A DNA stretch of 64,000 nt from Candidatus Multivoradales bacterium. Lineage in GTDB: Bacteria; Acidobacteriota; Thermoanaerobaculia; Multivoradales; JAHEKO01. Numbering within the stretch: position 1 is the first letter of the stretch; each line of letters begins with the position of its first letter. The stretch is from positions 3,008,001 to 3,072,000 of the forward strand of contig CBDCXM010000009.1 in NCBI GenBank assembly GCA_965223855.1. Reading direction: 5' to 3'. Shown here piece after piece: positions 52,547 through 58,814 of this stretch. A program made the position numbers and the translations under genes. Under the pieces are notes generated by a model, which was not told the origin of the DNA, searched no databases, and was given only the letters and a program-made list of their open reading frames with translations.

Positions 52547-55000
52547 TCAGAAGCCGAGTCGCAGAACCAGCCCGACGTTCCGCCCCGGGAGCGGCACCCG
52601 GTCCTTGACGAACGAGGTGTGCGTCCGCGCTTCCTCGTCGGTCAGGTTTGAGCCCCTCAGCAGGACGTCGAGGAAGTAGGTGTCGAAGAAGAACCGATAC
52701 CCGAGGTTGGCGTTGACGAGGGTGTAGTTCGCCGTCGCCGTCTCGTTGACGGCCACACGATCCTGGCTGTCCACCCACCGCCCCTCGATGCCGCCGCGCA
52801 GCCGGTCGCCCCGGTAGTGGAGCCCGGCGCCGAAGCGCTGCGGCGGGATCCGGGGCAGGTTGCTGCCGTCGTCGAACTCGGCACGGACGAAGTCGTAGAG
52901 AAGATCGAGATCCCACGAGGCGTGCGCTCGTTGCGCGAGCAGCACCGAGAGATCGACCTCACCTCCCCAGAAGTCGGCGTCCTGCTGCGACCACTGGAGT
53001 ACCGGCAGCCCGTCCTCCTCCTCACCGGTGAAGGCCTGGAAGATGAAGTCCGAGAACTGGTTGCGGAAGAGGTTGACGGCACCGGTCACCCGGCCCTCGA
53101 CCTTGCGCAGCGTCAGGTCGAGCCCCAGGGCCGCCTCGACATCGAGGTTCGGGTCCCCGACCTCGAAGGAGGCGGTGGCGAAGTGCGCGCCGTCCGAGTA
53201 GAGCTCTTCGCCCGTCGGCATCTTCGACGAGCGAGCGAGCGACGCCCCCAGAGAGTAGGTGTCGGAAGGCTTCCACACCAGCCCGATCGAAGCCGAGAGG
53301 GCGTCGAAGTCCCGGTTCGGTGCGTCGGCGGCTCTCACCGTGGTGTCCTGGGTTTCGTAGCGCACACCGAACTGGTAGCTCCAGTTTCCGCGCTCGAACT
53401 CCTGGAAGGTGAAGAGGCCGAGACTCTCCGCCTTGACAGGCGGCAGGAACGCCTCCTCGCCGACAGCCTCGAGATCCCTCGACCGCAGCTGCACGCCGAA
53501 CGACCCCTTGTGGGCGCCACGCTGGCGCTGCAGGAACTCGGCGCGAGCCTCCCAGGCGTCGTTGAAGAAGGTCGTCCCGATCTCCCCCTCGCCCTCGAGT
53601 TCGTCGTGCTCGTAGTCGACGACGCCGAGCCGGAACTTCGCGGACTCGACCAGACCGGTAGCACGGTTGAAGCCGCCCTCGAGGTCGAGGCGCTGCTGCC
53701 GCATGTCGATACGGATGTTCTCCTCCTCCTCCTCGCCTTCGTCGTGGTCGCCGTCGTGATCCTCGTCGCCGTCGTGCCCTTCGTCTCCTTCGTCGCCGTG
53801 CTCCTCCTCGTGGCCATGCTCGACGCCGGGGATCCCGTACTGAGTGTCGTAGCCCCTGACGGCGATGCCGAAGAAGCCCCGGTCGCCGAACCGGCGGCTC
53901 ATGCCGACGCCGGCGCTCGACGTCTCGAGATCGCTGTTCGGCAGAATGCCGAAGGGGTTCTCTTCCTCGTGATCGTCGTCGTGGCCGTCGTCGTCGTGGC
54001 CGTCATCGTCATGACCATCATCGTCGTGGCCATCGTCGTCGTGCTCCTCTTCGAGCGCCGCGAAGCCGGGAATCTCGTACTCGTCCGTCTCTCGCTGCAG
54101 CATCTCGAGATGCCACGCCCAGCTCTCGTTCCCACCGTCGAGGGAAACTGCACCGGCCCGCTCGTCCGACACCGAGCCGATTCTCAGGTCCACGGTGCCG
54201 GCAAAGCCGTCCGCTGGAGCGCCGTCGGGAATCCTGTTGTCCAGCACGTTGACGACGCCGCCGATCGCGTTGCTGCCGTAGAGGAGTGTTGCGGGCCCTC
54301 GCACCACCTCGACGCTTTCGGCGAGCAGCGGATCCGCGCTGACGGCATGGTCCGGGCTGCTGGTCGCGGCATCGAGGGTGTCGAGGCCGTTCTCCATCGT
54401 CTTCACCCGGTCGCCACCGAGGCCACGGATGATGGGCCGGCTCGAGCCGGGGCCGAAGTAGGTCGACGACACGCCGGCCTCCTGCGCCAGCGATTCGCCG
54501 AGCGTCGCCTCGACCTTGGACGCGAGCTCCAGGCCGTCGAGCACGTTGATCGGCGAGGCGACGTCGAGCTCGCCGCGGGCGTCGGGCGATGCCGTGACGA
54601 CAATCCTCTCGGCGTGCACCTCCCGGAGCAGCACGATCTCGAGCGGTGCGGACTCGCCGGTGGTCGCCTCGACTCGCTCCAGGGTGCGGTCGTGGCGAGC
54701 ACTGTCGATCTCGAGCAGGTGCTCACCGGGTTCGAGGCCCGTCAGTTCGAAGCAGCCCTGTTCGTCGGCCTGGGTGCGGACTCCGGTGCCGATGACGGAC
54801 AGCACGGCATCGACGACCGGCGCGTCGTCGGCAGTCACGACACAGCCTCGTATCGATGCCGCCTCGGGAGACTCTCCGGTCTGGGCGGTTGTGGGTATGG
54901 GTAGGGACAGCAGAAGAACCGATGCGACGATCGCCAGTCCGGCGGGGAGGGAGTTCCCCGTGGCGTGCCGCCTCTTCTGGATGCAGGAAGCGAAGTTCAT
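52547..55000 (-). CDS. TonB-dependent receptor, ZnuD-like, with His/Asp/Glu-rich loops
   Basis: FGPGSSRPIIRG, SPDHAV, RGPATLLYG, HDDDG x4, terminal Phe; SD GAGAGG before ATG 55000. Confidence 0.92.
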   Translation of the reverse strand: MNFASCIQKRRHATGNSLPAGLAIVASVLLLSLPIPTTAQTGESPEAASIRGCVVTADDAPVVDAVLSVIGTGVRTQADEQGCFELTGLEPGEHLLEIDSARHDRTLERVEATTGESAPLEIVLLREVHAERIVVTASPDARGELDVASPINVLDGLELASKVEATLGESLAQEAGVSSTYFGPGSSRPIIRGLGGDRVKTMENGLDTLDAATSSPDHAVSADPLLAESVEVVRGPATLLYGSNAIGGVVNVLDNRIPDGAPADGFAGTVDLRIGSVSDERAGAVSLDGGNESWAWHLEMLQRETDEYEIPGFAALEEEHDDDGHDDDGHDDDGHDDDGHDDDHEEENPFGILPNSDLETSSAGVGMSRRFGDRGFFGIAVRGYDTQYGIPGVEHGHEEEHGDEGDEGHDGDEDHDGDHDEGEEEEENIRIDMRQQRLDLEGGFNRATGLVESAKFRLGVVDYEHDELEGEGEIGTTFFNDAWEARAEFLQRQRGAHKGSFGVQLRSRDLEAVGEEAFLPPVKAESLGLFTFQEFERGNWSYQFGVRYETQDTTVRAADAPNRDFDALSASIGLVWKPSDTYSLGASLARSSKMPTGEELYSDGAHFATASFEVGDPNLDVEAALGLDLTLRKVEGRVTGAVNLFRNQFSDFIFQAFTGEEEDGLPVLQWSQQDADFWGGEVDLSVLLAQRAHASWDLDLLYDFVRAEFDDGSNLPRIPPQRFGAGLHYRGDRLRGGIEGRWVDSQDRVAVNETATANYTLVNANLGYRFFFDTYFLDVLLRGSNLTDEEARTHTSFVKDRVPLPGRNVGLVLRLGF

Positions 55001-55129
55001 GACAGACCTCTCTTGCGTGGGGATGACAGACAGTTCCTCGACCAATGCGGGTCGAGAGGTCGCTCGGTCTCGTCGAAGAGACCGGCGGCCGCGGATCTGG
55101 GAGGGCGAGAGGATCCTCGCCCTGGCGGA

Positions 55130-55483
55130 TCAGGCGGCCGGCGGAGCGCGAGAGGTCGGTAGAGCGAAGGGCTGGTGTAGCTCCGGTCGCGCGAGGTCGG
55201 CCGGCCGGGACGCCCCGAGCAGCTCGACGCTGCCGGCGCGAACCCAGGACGGCTCGCCGATCGACTGGCGGGAAGCCTGCACGCAATCGACGCACGACGG
55301 CTCGCTCAGCTGATGAACCGCCTCGACGTGCGCCCGCTCTTCGAGCGTCTCGTGACCAGCCGAAACCGTCGGCAGGTGCTCGTGACCGAGCGATTCGTGG
55401 TCGTGCGACCAGCCGGTCCCGATCGCCGCCATTCCGACGGCGAGCGACAAGGCCAGCAGTGAGCGCAACGAGAAGCTCTTCAC
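55130..55483 (-). CDS. DUF2946/CruR-like leader protein (signal peptide, His-rich, CxxC, C-terminal RAPP)
   Basis: HDH..HEH, CVDC, ...PTSRAPPAA*. Confidence 0.8.
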   Translation of the reverse strand: MKSFSLRSLLALSLAVGMAAIGTGWSHDHESLGHEHLPTVSAGHETLEERAHVEAVHQLSEPSCVDCVQASRQSIGEPSWVRAGSVELLGASRPADLARPELHQPFALPTSRAPPAA

Positions 55484-55593
55484 GAGCAGAAAGGTAGCAG
55501 GTGTGGGAGTTCCGCGACAAGATCGCCCGACGGCAGGTGTGAGGGCTCAGCGCAGCAGCGCCGGCCGGGCCGCTCGGCTAAGATGGCGCCGGA

Positions 55594-55932
55594 ATGATCG
55601 GGAAGCGCCTTTTCGCGACAACGCTCGCCGCGCTGCTCTTCGGCGCCGTGGCGGCACCCTGCATGACCATGGAGGGTTGCGAGCCGCCGCCGGCTCAGGA
55701 GTCGCATTGCGAGCCGACCGGGCCGACGCTCGATGTCGCCTGTTGCTGCGACGGTGCCGACTCGACCGCCACGGACGCGATGCGCCCCGCCGGCGCCCAT
55801 CAGGTGTCGCCCGCCGCTCCCGCTCTCGTCGCACGGACGAGCCACGGCCCGCGGGTCGATCGGCTTCCTGAGCCGCCGCCGCCCGCCCCGCCCGGCGCCC
55901 TGCAGACCTCGCTCTGCATCTCCCTGACCTGA
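55594..55932 (+). CDS. CutF-like Cys-rich leader protein with Pro-rich C-terminus
   Basis: Signal peptide, CMTMEGC, HC, CCC, PEPPPPAPP..LC; directly upstream of copA. Confidence 0.75.
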   Translation: MIGKRLFATTLAALLFGAVAAPCMTMEGCEPPPAQESHCEPTGPTLDVACCCDGADSTATDAMRPAGAHQVSPAAPALVARTSHGPRVDRLPEPPPPAPPGALQTSLCISLT

Positions 55933-56058
55933 CCGCTTCTTCGGCGGCGCCTCGAGCGCCGCTCGATGTCGTTGCGGAAGAGCATCAGGTAGGACCGTCC
56001 TCGGAAGGTCGCAGCTCCAACACAGCTGCCCACCCGGGGATCAGCAACAGGCCGGGAG

Positions 56059-57999
56059 ATGGGTATGAATCGCAGACAGTTCTTGAAGTTCGCATCGGCG
56101 CTCGGTGGCAGCGCCGTCGCACAAGCTCTCCTGCCGCCGTGGGCGCGATCGGCGTGGGCGGTCGGCAGCGACCCGACGGCCGATCCGCTCGCGCGGCCTT
56201 CCCTCGAGACGGCCGAGAGCTTCCTCCTGAAGGTGGCAGAGAGCTCCTGGGAGATCGAGGGCCGAACCGGCCGCGCCGTGACCCTCAACGGCACCATACC
56301 GGGGCCGCTCCTGCGGTGGCGCGAGGGCACCGAGGTGACCCTCGACGTCGACAACCGACTCGGCGAAGACACGTCGATCCACTGGCACGGCATCCTTCTG
56401 CCTCCCGAGATGGACGGAGTGCCGGGCGTGAGCTTCGCCGGCATCCCGGGTCGCGAGACCTTCCGCTACCGGTTCCCGGTGCTGCAGTCCGGTACCTACT
56501 GGTACCACAGCCATTCGGGATTCCAGGAGCAGTTGGGGCACTACGGGCCGCTACTCATTGATCCTGCGGGTGCCGACCCGATCGGGTCGGATCGCGAGAT
56601 CGTCATCGTCCTCGCTGATTGGACCTTCGAGAACCCCCGGCGGGTTTTCGCCAAGCTCAAGAAGGTCAGTCACGCGTACGACTATCAGAAGCTGACCGTG
56701 AGGGATCTCTTCCGCCGCGCCAGGAACGACGGTTGGGGCGAGGCACTGCGGGAGCGCGCCATGTGGGGATCGATGCGGATGAGCCCGACCGACCTCGCGG
56801 ACGTCACAGGAGCGACCTACACCTATCTGATCAACGGGCACGGGCCGGAGGACGACTGGACCGCGCTCTTCGAGCCGGGCGAGCGGCTCCGGCTGCGGAT
56901 CATCAACGCATCGGCGATGTCGATCTTCAACGTCCGTATCCCGGGTCTGCCGATGACGGTAGTGCAGTCCGACGGGCTGCCGGTGAGGCCGATGACGGTC
57001 GACGAGTTCCAGATCGGGACCGCGGAGACCTACGATGTCGTCGTCCAGACCTCGGAGCACCGCGCCTACACCCTGATGTGCGAGTCGATCGACCGCAGCG
57101 GCTTCGCGCGCGCCACGCTGACACCGGAGCTCGGCCTCCGCGCCGAGGTGCCCGAGCTGCGCGAGAGACCGCTGCTGACGATGGGCGACATGGGCATGGA
57201 GCACCACGGGGCGCACGGCGCCCACGATGGCGGAACCGAGGCGCCCGAGGAGCAGGGTGGGCATGGCTCTCACGAAGCCATGGATCACGGCAGCATGAAC
57301 CACGACGACAAGGATCACGGCGACATGGATCATGCCGGCATGCATCACGAAGGAATGAATCACGGCGCCATGGGTCACGCGGGCATGGACGCTCACGAGC
57401 ACGGCGAAGCGGCCGGCGGCGGCTCCGCATGGCCGACCGAGCCCACCGCCAGACAGCCGGTCGAGCGCGGCCCCGGGGTGGCCAACGTCGCCGAGACGCC
57501 GCGCAACAGACTTCACGAGCCCGGCATCGGGCTCGAGGACGTGGCTCATCGCACGCTGAGCTACGCGGATCTCGAGAGCCTCGACACCAACCCGGACACC
57601 CGGCCTCCGGAGCGGGAGCTCGAGTTGCATCTTACGAGCAACATGGAGCGCTACATGTGGTCGTTCGACGGCGTGAAGCTCTCCGAGAACCCCGAACCGA
57701 TCGTCTTCCACGAGGGGGAGCGCCTGCGCCTGACGATGGTGAACAACACCATGATGCCGCACCCGATCCACCTGCACGGGATGTTCTTCGAGGTGGTCAA
57801 CGGCAAGGGCTCCAGGCAGCCGCGCAAGCACACCATCATCGTGAAGCCGGCCGAGAAGCTGTCGCTCGACGTCACTGCCGACGCCGTCGGCGACTGGGCG
57901 TTCCACTGCCATCTGCTCTACCACATGCATGCCGGGATGATGCGGGTGGTGTCGGTCCGGCCTCGCACGTCGGAGCCGGCGGCGAGGGAGGAGGCATGA
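56059..57999 (+). CDS. copA: Copper resistance multicopper oxidase (CopA/PcoA type)
   Basis: Tat signal NRRQFLK, HWHG, WYHSH, HPIHLHG, HCHLLYHM, Met/His-rich insert; start may be 56065. Confidence 0.96.
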   Translation: MGMNRRQFLKFASALGGSAVAQALLPPWARSAWAVGSDPTADPLARPSLETAESFLLKVAESSWEIEGRTGRAVTLNGTIPGPLLRWREGTEVTLDVDNRLGEDTSIHWHGILLPPEMDGVPGVSFAGIPGRETFRYRFPVLQSGTYWYHSHSGFQEQLGHYGPLLIDPAGADPIGSDREIVIVLADWTFENPRRVFAKLKKVSHAYDYQKLTVRDLFRRARNDGWGEALRERAMWGSMRMSPTDLADVTGATYTYLINGHGPEDDWTALFEPGERLRLRIINASAMSIFNVRIPGLPMTVVQSDGLPVRPMTVDEFQIGTAETYDVVVQTSEHRAYTLMCESIDRSGFARATLTPELGLRAEVPELRERPLLTMGDMGMEHHGAHGAHDGGTEAPEEQGGHGSHEAMDHGSMNHDDKDHGDMDHAGMHHEGMNHGAMGHAGMDAHEHGEAAGGGSAWPTEPTARQPVERGPGVANVAETPRNRLHEPGIGLEDVAHRTLSYADLESLDTNPDTRPPERELELHLTSNMERYMWSFDGVKLSENPEPIVFHEGERLRLTMVNNTMMPHPIHLHGMFFEVVNGKGSRQPRKHTIIVKPAEKLSLDVTADAVGDWAFHCHLLYHMHAGMMRVVSVRPRTSEPAAREEA

Positions 58000-58814
58000 A
58001 GCTGTTGCGGAACGTCGCGATTGGCGGTTGGGCCGTCGCCTTCGCCCTCGCCATGGCGGTTCGAGCGGAGGCCTCCGGCAAGCATCCCGCCGATCATGAG
58101 GATGGAATGGAGAAGGCCCGCCACCACATGTTGCGCCACCATGGAGGGCTACCGCACTGGATGGTGATGGCGGATCGGCTCGAGTGGCGGGAGGACGAGG
58201 AGTTCCTCCTCTGGGATCTCCAGGGTTGGTACGGAGGCGATCGGCATCGGCTGTGGTTCAAGAGCGAGGCCGAGTACGAGCTCGATGGCTCTGATCCCGA
58301 CCGGCTCGTCACCGGCTCGATGAGCGAAAGCGACTTTCATGAGTTCGAGCTGCAGGCTCTCTACGGCCGGGCTGTGACCACCTACTTCGATGTCCTGCTC
58401 GGGCTGAGGCACGATTTCGAGCCGGATCCGGCGACGAGCTATGCCGTCGTCGGCCTGCACGGGCTCGCCCCCCAGATGTTCGAGATCGACGCCTCTCTCT
58501 TCGTCAGCGATGAAGGCGACCTCTCACTGCGCCTCGAAGCCGAGTACGAGCTCCTGCTGACCCAACGGCTGGTTCTCCAGCCTCGCATCGAGCTGGAGGC
58601 CTCGGCTCAGGAGGTCCCCGAACGAGAGCTCGGCAGCGGCCTCAGCTCGGCCGAGGGGGGACTGCGCCTGCGCTACGAGGTTCGGCGCGAGTTCGCCCCG
58701 TACATCGGCTGGAGCTGGGAGCGGAAGCTCGGTGCCACGGAGCGGCTCGCAACGGCGGCGGGGGAGGAGGCCTCGGCCTCGACGCTCGTTGTCGGACTGA
58801 GGCTCTGGTATTGA
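57996..58814 (+). CDS. copB: Copper resistance outer-membrane protein B
   Basis: DRLEW, WYGGD..RLWFKSE, GLAP, LTQRLVLQP, LRYEVRREFAPYIG; ATGA overlap with copA. Confidence 0.93.
   Translation: MKLLRNVAIGGWAVAFALAMAVRAEASGKHPADHEDGMEKARHHMLRHHGGLPHWMVMADRLEWREDEEFLLWDLQGWYGGDRHRLWFKSEAEYELDGSDPDRLVTGSMSESDFHEFELQALYGRAVTTYFDVLLGLRHDFEPDPATSYAVVGLHGLAPQMFEIDASLFVSDEGDLSLRLEAEYELLLTQRLVLQPRIELEASAQEVPERELGSGLSSAEGGLRLRYEVRREFAPYIGWSWERKLGATERLATAAGEEASASTLVVGLRLWY

Follow-up and report, generated by a model that had tools for sequence, protein, structure and literature searches.

The copAB locus and its putative leader

A 64,000 nt stretch of the genome of Candidatus Multivoradales bacterium (Acidobacteriota; assembly GCA_965223855.1, contig CBDCXM010000009.1, positions 3,008,001 to 3,072,000; hereafter the window) carries the copper-resistance genes copA and copB behind a short open reading frame (ORF), a putative exported leader. 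This ORF is the first gene of a copL-copA-copB-like cluster and lies on the same strand as the genes for CopB and for CopA, a multicopper oxidase with a twin-arginine (TAT) signal (Table 1). CopA (644-646 amino acids, aa) matches TIGR01480 at E 1.3e-238. Its likelier start is ATG 56065, 6 nt after GGGAG (56054-56058), which serves as Shine-Dalgarno (SD) sequence, and ATG 56059 is also in frame. The spacer between the leader stop codon and copA is thus 132 nt, or 126 nt to the first in-frame ATG. An RND pump encoded nearby has its best matches, at 68-73% identity, in metagenome-assembled genomes labelled Acidobacteriota, class Thermoanaerobaculia.

The leader looks like a small exported protein. 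Read by eye, its N-terminus begins with MIGKR (K4-R5), followed by a hydrophobic core of 14 residues and by AVA ahead of A21. Cysteines occur at residues 23, 29, 39, 50, 51, 52 and 108. The sequence PEPPPPAPP occupies residues 92-100, and within it the motif P97-A-P-P100 lies 44 residues past C52 and 12 codons ahead of the stop. The 12-residue tail that follows P100 is GALQTSLCISLT. The genome contains a gene for elongation factor P (EF-P).

It is very improbable that the ORF is untranslated and that the region is simply a structured 5' untranslated leader of copAB. Such a reading would agree with the weak SD before ATG 55594 and with the absence of both a family match and a homologue (see below), but the GC content at third codon positions is 0.85, as in the neighbouring genes (0.82-0.87), the N-terminus resembles a signal peptide, and the Cys pattern is common to the leaders of two copA loci (L022 and L027) in a genome of the same family; the spacing between the Cys cluster and the proline motif also argues for a translated product. 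A mini-ORF of four codons (ATG GCG CCG GAA TGA, 55583-55597, plus strand) overlaps the leader ATG and may be due to chance.

No copper regulator gene was seen adjoining the operon among the listed ORFs of the window. A separate copA promoter between 55933 and 56050 would speak against the reading of the initial annotation; none was found there by a consensus scan, which is little informative for Acidobacteriota, so a promoter may still exist. A scan of 55050-56150 for sigma-70 promoter and terminator consensus sequences gave no match and is likewise uninformative for this phylum.

Table 1. Features of the leader and copAB region (positions are counted from the first base of the window)
Feature	Position	Strand	Basis
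Divergent intergenic region between two leader ORFs; presumably contains both promoters	55484-55593	.	
Leader ORF, 112 codons + TGA	55594-55932	+	Open frame in ORF map
Sec-type signal peptide, residues 1-20	55594-55653	+	By inspection of translation
Cys cluster C23, C29 (Cx5C), C39, C50-C51-C52; candidate metal-binding part of nascent chain	55660-55749	+	
PPPP-A-PP, residues 94-100; P97-A-P-P100 is the candidate arrest point	55873-55893	+	
5' arm CAUCUCCC, anti-SD and anti-start, codons TGC ATC TCC CTG (C108-I-S-L111)	55917-55924	+	
Predicted hairpin A; base holds leader stop codon (ACCUGA:UCAGGU)	55927-55990	+	
Predicted hairpin B, abutting SD	55992-56053	+	
3' arm GGGAGAUG, copA SD GGGAG and first in-frame AUG (56059)	56054-56061	+	
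copA, multicopper oxidase, twin-arginine signal (MNRRQFLK)	56065-57999	+	TIGR01480, three Cu-oxidase Pfam domains
copB, copper resistance protein B (outer membrane); overlaps copA stop	57996-58814	+	PF05275, E 2.1e-80

Pairing between the leader tail and the copA ribosome site

The last codons of the leader can pair with the ribosome site of copA. As the initial annotation had it, CATCTCCC (55917-55924) and GGGAGATG (56054-56061) are exact reverse complements, both letters and coordinates being right, and the PPPP-A-PP tract at 55873-55893 stands 24 nt ahead of 55917. A further pairing had been proposed between CCTG (55928-55931) and CAGG (56048-56051). These letters are complementary, but they do not pair in the best fold, where ACCUGA (55927-55932) pairs with UCAGGU (55985-55990) instead; this extension of the helix was rejected.

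When 55907-56075 is folded alone, the 8-bp helix closes a minimum-energy three-way junction that spans the 126 nt spacer (-76.2 kcal/mol, z -2.93; 2 of 200 shuffles equally good). Folding thus upheld the proposed helix where the proline tract is left out, but in free RNA it is a minor fold: forcing it in 55860-56090 costs 4.1 kcal/mol (-95.6 compared with -99.7). This longer stretch is not unusually stable as a whole (z -1.86). The SD is predicted to be largely hidden even in free RNA, with a mean unpaired probability of 0.20 in the fold of 55760-56100 and its core bases 56054-56056 fully paired in the ensemble of 55860-56090. With 55879-55906 kept single-stranded, as they would be under a ribosome with P100 in the A or P site, the tail helix takes 84% of SD pairing and the mean unpaired probability of the SD drops to 0.04. 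The dominance of the tail helix therefore appears to depend on the position of the ribosome.

Statistical weight for the pairing is moderate. Of the 25,592 stretches of 21 nt in the 64-kb window, 117 (0.46%) hold an exact complement of at least 8 nt to the 22-nt block 56046-56067. The duplex between the last 27 nt of the leader plus 8 nt and the copA ribosome site has an energy of -24.4 kcal/mol, compared with -20.5 ± 3.9 kcal/mol for controls from the same locus. An Rfam search of 55000-56300 at E up to 1 returned no match.

Spacing of the cysteine cluster, the proline motif and the helix

The literature search led to two dissected metal-sensing leaders. CruR (Bp2923) of Bordetella pertussis, a DUF2946 protein, has a CXXC motif, 45 residues and then RAPP three residues from its end (PMC9426467). 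Copper sensed by the nascent chain relieves the arrest, after which Rho terminates transcription before the gene for a TonB-dependent transporter; the spacing is conserved within 1-2 residues across the family, and function tolerates a change of ±2 but not of +5 residues and needs neither the signal peptide nor EF-P (PMC9426467). CutF of Rhodobacter capsulatus, encoded in cutFOG, combines a signal peptide and CxxxC with a PPP-R-L end about 45 residues further on (PMC9973294). In CutF, copper makes the arrest last longer, and the SD of the oxidase gene cutO, otherwise masked by a stem-loop, is freed when the stalled ribosome melts this structure; a Δefp strain is constitutively ON and a change of PPP to PAP is OFF (PMC9973294; bioRxiv 10.1101/2025.02.05.636593).

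In the window leader 44 residues lie between C52 and P97, compared with about 45 between the Cys motif and xAPP in the CruR family, and the distance in the other copA leaders collected (see below) is about 42 to 54. Exactly 44 residues also separate C67 from R112 in the neighbouring leader on the minus strand. The match to CruR and CutF (44 versus 45) points to PAPP, rather than the stop codon, as the probable arrest point.

The leading edge of a ribosome lies about 15 nt beyond the P-site, and this value was used to place a ribosome on the last PP. Its edge would then be 12 nt short of the first paired base in the window, and the main competitor of the helix, the proline codons, would be covered. 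This agrees with the expectation of the initial annotation that a stalled ribosome would leave the helix intact. The gap between edge and duplex has a median of 14 nt; 23 of 25 loci give a positive value, and Xanthomonas CopL gives -4 (an overlap). The number of residues after the last PP is 12 in the window, mostly 13 in alphaproteobacterial leaders and 8-19 in acidobacterial leaders, but 2 in CutF, Xanthomonas CopL and the neighbouring RAPP leader. In leaders with a proline motif set back from the stop, an arrested ribosome would leave the helix standing because its edge stops ahead of the paired bases, and the tail helix would be unwound only by a ribosome translating as far as the stop.

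The divergent leader

The neighbouring ORF (55130-55483, minus strand, 117 aa) encodes a signal peptide, a His-rich stretch (HDHESLGHEH) and C64-x2-C67 (C-V-D-C). R112-A-P-P115 stands two residues from its end. These motifs, 44 residues apart, form the hallmark layout of CruR as published. It lies 84 nt before a gene for a ZnuD-like TonB-dependent receptor (52547-55045, minus strand), which has long His/Asp-rich inserts and matches NF038289 at E 1.1e-116 (391 bits, below the cut-off of 950 bits). No Pfam match was obtained for ORF 55130-55483. This minus-strand ORF is the true CruR look-alike of the window and, from the CruR precedent as published, its arrest would be relieved by metal.

Leaders at homologous copA loci

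CopA was found in 6 of the 61 genomes examined from the same order (E up to 1e-60) and in 22 of 401 from the phylum (E up to 1e-100); both tallies take in the unpublished genome G005, where CopA has no match. The best 80 CopA loci in a collection of species representatives are mostly from marine Alphaproteobacteria (49-64% identity). Since the genes are patchy in the lineage and their closest relatives are in marine Alphaproteobacteria, the sequences suggest that copAB (56065-58814) was acquired horizontally in the window lineage.

The genome G020, from the same family as the window, has two copA copies (L022 and L027), each behind an ORF of 137 or 140 aa with a signal peptide. These ORFs end ERPPSAALPVVMLL and RRPAFTLHASLLL, and by eye they have a Cx5C ... 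xC[HE] ... CC pattern in common with the window leader; BLASTP of the window leader against that of L022 gave E 0.003 over 29 residues. At least 20 distinct loci among the best 80 have a leader with a signal, C-A-C, a His-rich stretch, CxHC and PP. The tail of these mostly alphaproteobacterial leaders is 9-26 residues long and typically TPxxLKTRLLN. Of the 23 CopA loci sampled from the phylum, 9 have a leader of the signal-plus-Cys type with the ending PP-x8-19-[VIL]LR[IL]. The window tail L-C-I-S-L-T resembles L-R-I-stop, as if the stop had been read through for three codons.

For energy comparisons a set of 23 loci was drawn up, made up of the window locus, both G020 loci and 20 further ones, from 34 candidates picked by a heuristic. 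L079-L085 were dropped as having the same leader as L075, L037 and L108 as ending PPP 3 residues from the stop (with stop codons 248 and 323 nt upstream of the copA RR codons), and L052, L060 and L092 as lacking the signal-plus-Cys pattern. L086, which resembles L090, was omitted by oversight, and L027, L088 and the 137-aa frame of L090 were added by eye.

In this set, the last four to five leader codons and the stop are often paired with the copA site in minimum-energy folds, so that the spacer is enclosed in full. The tail and site sequences differ between lineages with their partners matching (for example, L045, L049, L053 and L078). Leader tails pair better with their own copA site (mean -16.3 kcal/mol) than with the sites of other loci (-11.9 kcal/mol), and none of 5000 permutations was as good. 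In 14 of the 23 loci the leader tail beats at least 95% of control windows from the same locus. The 8-mer of the window stands where other copA leaders carry their anti-SD (p ~0.005 for that position). The complementarity expected from the initial annotation at homologous loci is thus found again in other copA leaders but is absent from the closest, L022 and L027, in which the SD pairs inside the spacer. Several phylum loci have CCUCC or CAUCUG words opposite GAGG or CAGAUG. RNAalifold on a MAFFT alignment of 14 stretches from leader tail to copA start gave zero consensus pairs, because variable spacers put the 3' arms out of register; duplex energies with controls were therefore used instead of column-wise covariation.

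Two alphaproteobacterial copA loci, L037 and L108, have upstream signal-plus-Cys ORFs that end PPP-R-T-I and PPP-K-L-S, a CutF-like layout; relatives within a single CopA clade thus include both layouts. Another observation concerns an 11-letter RNA word, CAUCUGAUCCG, which stands at the 3' end of acidobacterial copA leaders (L118 and L132), where it is read R-I-stop, and also 20 nt before the stop of Xanthomonas copL (L137:3529-3590, minus strand), where it is read in a different frame as H-L-I-R.

Relationship to described families

The window leader could not be assigned to a family by sequence. No Pfam or NCBIfam match was obtained. PF11162 (DUF2946/CruR; gathering score 23.7 bits) did not match the leader at E up to 0.1, and, searched against all six frames of the genome (E up to 1), it found nothing at the leader and one weak match elsewhere. 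NF033807 (CopL; cut-off 40 bits) gave no match at E up to 10, and in the same search Xanthomonas CopL scored 112 bits (E 2.7e-32). The idea that the leader is recognizable by sequence as a CopL or DUF2946 member was rejected on these results. Sub-threshold DUF2946 matches (E 7e-4 to 0.5) were found in 7 of 21 other copA leaders.

Searches with the leader itself were equally barren. In phmmer against 1.84 billion representatives it finds only itself, and a word-indexed search returned only the leader among 227 candidates. A six-frame search of 61 related genomes gave noise only (best E 9.5e-4, inside a 353-aa frame). Of 599 pattern stretches in a metagenome scan with the leader none was confirmed; a scan with the 80 N-terminal residues of CopA as query picked out 11 loci, which match in the TAT-signal region only (28-61% identity) and were not used. 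An hhalign comparison with an alignment of 21 copA leaders gave 19% probability, in the signal peptide region only.

By architecture the leader stands near both dissected families. The CXXC of the CruR family is absent and CCC stands at the equivalent position, and the ending is PAPP, with P for R, followed by 12 residues rather than the CruR-type RAPP. The published filters for CutF-like proteins are fewer than 150 aa, PP in the last 15 residues, an N-terminal signal and a downstream gene within 1000 nt (PMC9973294). The window leader passes these with 112 aa, an apparent signal read by eye, P99-P100 at -14/-13 and copA 126-132 nt downstream, and the predicted fold supplies a stem-loop shielding the SD of the oxidase gene. 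It is not retrieved by iterative sequence search from CutF-like seeds, and its proline motif is not next to the stop (12 codons after PP, 12 nt gap). In kind such leaders are known; what is new is a member found by no family model, in a phylum that is not among the main ones named in the CutF survey. No description of a set-back PP with an anti-SD tail was found in the accessible CruR, CutF and DUF2946 literature, whose supplements may list such proteins.

Proposed control of copAB by the leader

ORF 55594-55932 is probably a cis-regulatory metal-sensing leader of the CruR/CutF/CopL kind. That its tail helix is a working regulatory element is slightly favoured by the evidence. From the sequence we infer each part of a fuller scheme, namely that the leader is translated and exported, that PAPP causes arrest, that the Cys cluster binds copper, and the polarity of the response. 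The ribosome would arrest on PAPP as the Cys cluster has just left the tunnel and the translocon. Arrested there, it would cover the competing proline codons and stop ~12 nt short of the helix, so that the copA start would stay hidden (OFF). Copper bound to the nascent Cys cluster would relieve the arrest, as shown for CruR, and the ribosome would then read the tail to the stop, unwind the 5' arm and expose the copA start, allowing copA to be translated (ON). Release as the ON signal is favoured because of the set-back layout and the identical sensor spacing of both divergent leaders. This geometry fits the idea in the initial annotation that release of stalling turns copAB on, and the direction of sensing would match that of CruR and be opposite to that of CutF. 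The complete scheme of an exported metal-sensing leader gating copAB translation, polarity included, is a serious possibility in which our confidence falls a little short of even.

Several points weigh against it. In the equilibrium ensemble of 55860-56090 the helix proposed in the initial annotation has a probability of only ~0.04, and the SD of free RNA pairs at ~85% with the proline codons 55885-55896; at 67-68% GC almost any C-rich stretch is able to pair with the SD. A complement of at least 8 nt occurs in 118 of the 1,271 ORF-length stretches (9.3%) of the 64-kb window, and 14.9% of 121 control windows from the same locus (fraction 0.149) match or beat the leader end. The closest loci, L022 and L027, lack pairing of tail and SD (control fractions 0.86 and 0.95), and none of nine leaders from the same phylum reaches 0.05 (best 0.074). 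Family likeness appears to lie in architecture, a detectable sequence relation to DUF2946, CopL or any other protein being absent. Lastly CutF, the sole multicopper oxidase leader known to have been dissected, has the opposite polarity (arrest is ON).

Part of this evidence would suit a simpler explanation, in which arrest-based sensing plays no part, the product of the ORF is a small Cys-rich protein that binds copper and is secreted or periplasmic (or the ORF is simply a co-translated first gene), control of copAB is transcriptional and the complementarity is a chance by-product of a G-rich SD in GC-rich DNA. Both the frequency of 8-mer complements in ORF-length stretches and the same-locus control fraction speak for it, as do the many alternative partners of the SD, the missing pairing at the nearest homologous loci and the occurrence of a PPPPAPP-coding pattern 14 times in the genome, compared with 8 for the reversed control. 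However, the protein is Pro/Ala-rich and has no detectable relatives among the 1.84 billion representatives, which is typical of fast-evolving leaders and not of folded proteins, and its distance of 44 residues from Cys to xAPP is the one found in the neighbouring RAPP leader and agrees with CruR and CutF. The location of the 8-mer at the anti-SD of other copA leaders and the lack of a copper regulator gene beside the operon among the listed ORFs also stand against this explanation, which we consider improbable. Were the pairing due to chance, the ORF would be one more unrecognized CutF/CopL-like leader, and so ordinary.

The leader might also work with the polarity of CutF, copper prolonging arrest on PPPPAPP and the arrested ribosome switching copAB on. 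Genetics and biochemistry established this direction for CutF before a multicopper oxidase gene (PMC9973294; bioRxiv 10.1101/2025.02.05.636593), and PEPPPPAPP of the window resembles CutF PEPEGPPPRL (bioRxiv 10.1101/2025.02.05.636593), with a spacing of 44-45 residues common to both. Moreover, the main partner of the SD in free RNA is the proline codon tract (85%), which an arrested ribosome could cover. Yet covering this tract is predicted to move the SD to the tail arm (84%, mean unpaired probability 0.04) rather than to free it, the arrest point is 12 codons from the stop compared with 2 in CutF and CopL, and a 12 nt gap separates the arrested ribosome from the helix. Since the arrested ribosome cannot reach the tail helix, this polarity needs another route to expression, which could be the covering of the proline codons as the preferred partner of the SD, or shielding of the transcript from Rho or nucleases until the ribosome is let go through the tail. 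We regard this polarity as unlikely.

If release of arrest does switch copAB on, there may be a second leader layout before multicopper oxidases, in which PP or xAPP stands 8-26 codons before the stop, the tail codons form the anti-SD arm, and arrest keeps the oxidase gene closed while release triggered by metal opens it by unwinding coupled to termination. Such a generalization is tentative and somewhat doubtful. It is just as doubtful whether this arrest-closed layout, the mirror of CutF and SecM, extends over this locus, other Acidobacteriota and many marine Alphaproteobacteria. Leader peptides that sense metals (CruR 2022, CutF 2023-2025) form a recent class of post-transcriptional regulators, and the two known to have been dissected work in opposite directions. 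The number of codons between the proline motif and the stop, together with an anti-SD in those codons, would be a possible rule separating the output logics, and would bring Acidobacteriota, as well as proteins missed by every family model, into the class. At the window locus a single direction of sensing, relief of arrest by metal, would shut an importer and open a detoxifier at once.

Comparison with known leaders

The window leader is like CruR, as published, in having a Cys motif, a spacer of 44-45 residues, xAPP, a putative export signal, a position as first gene before copper genes and a long structured spacer. The direction of sensing assumed for it, copper relieving arrest, is that of CruR. 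It is unlike CruR, with its CXXC, RAPP near the end, Rho and an importer turned OFF, in having PAPP, a 12-codon anti-SD tail and a proposed ON output.

With CutF, in its published description, it has in common the small exported leader before a TAT-signal multicopper oxidase and a Cys motif ~45 residues before a Pro-rich motif. The downstream SD is hidden in an RNA structure in CutF and is predicted to be so here, and action in cis, as in CutF, is proposed for the window leader. In CutF, however, the arrested ribosome touches the stem-loop, whereas in the window 12 codons follow PP and contain the anti-SD. The Cys motifs are Cx5C and CCC instead of CxxxC, sequence similarity is undetectable, and the phylum is Acidobacteriota rather than Pseudomonadota.

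CopL of Xanthomonas and Stenotrophomonas, encoded by the first gene of copLAB, was grouped with CutF by the authors of the CutF study, who suggest that the two are isofunctional (PMC9973294). Xanthomonas CopL, taken here from plasmid NZ_CP018859, is like the window leader in standing before copA-copB and in its signal peptide, Cys-rich segment and C-terminal PP. Between copL and copA the stop codon and the next six bases are predicted to pair with a stretch that begins just ahead of the SD and runs into it, so that a predicted helix ending on the copA SD closes the spacer in both loci (115 nt in Xanthomonas, 132 nt in the window). CopL differs in that 2 residues follow PP (R-P-P-I-G-stop) and the stop codon is where its helix starts; in the window 12 residues follow and the helix is in the tail.

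SecM, MifM and VemP are arrest leaders in which force on the chain sets the arrest, arrest exposes an SD and release closes it (PMC9973294). The window leader is like them in combining an exported nascent chain with an SD-hiding structure before the regulated gene. It is unlike them in its ligand, which would be a metal instead of export capacity, and in its layout, which suggests the reverse logic.

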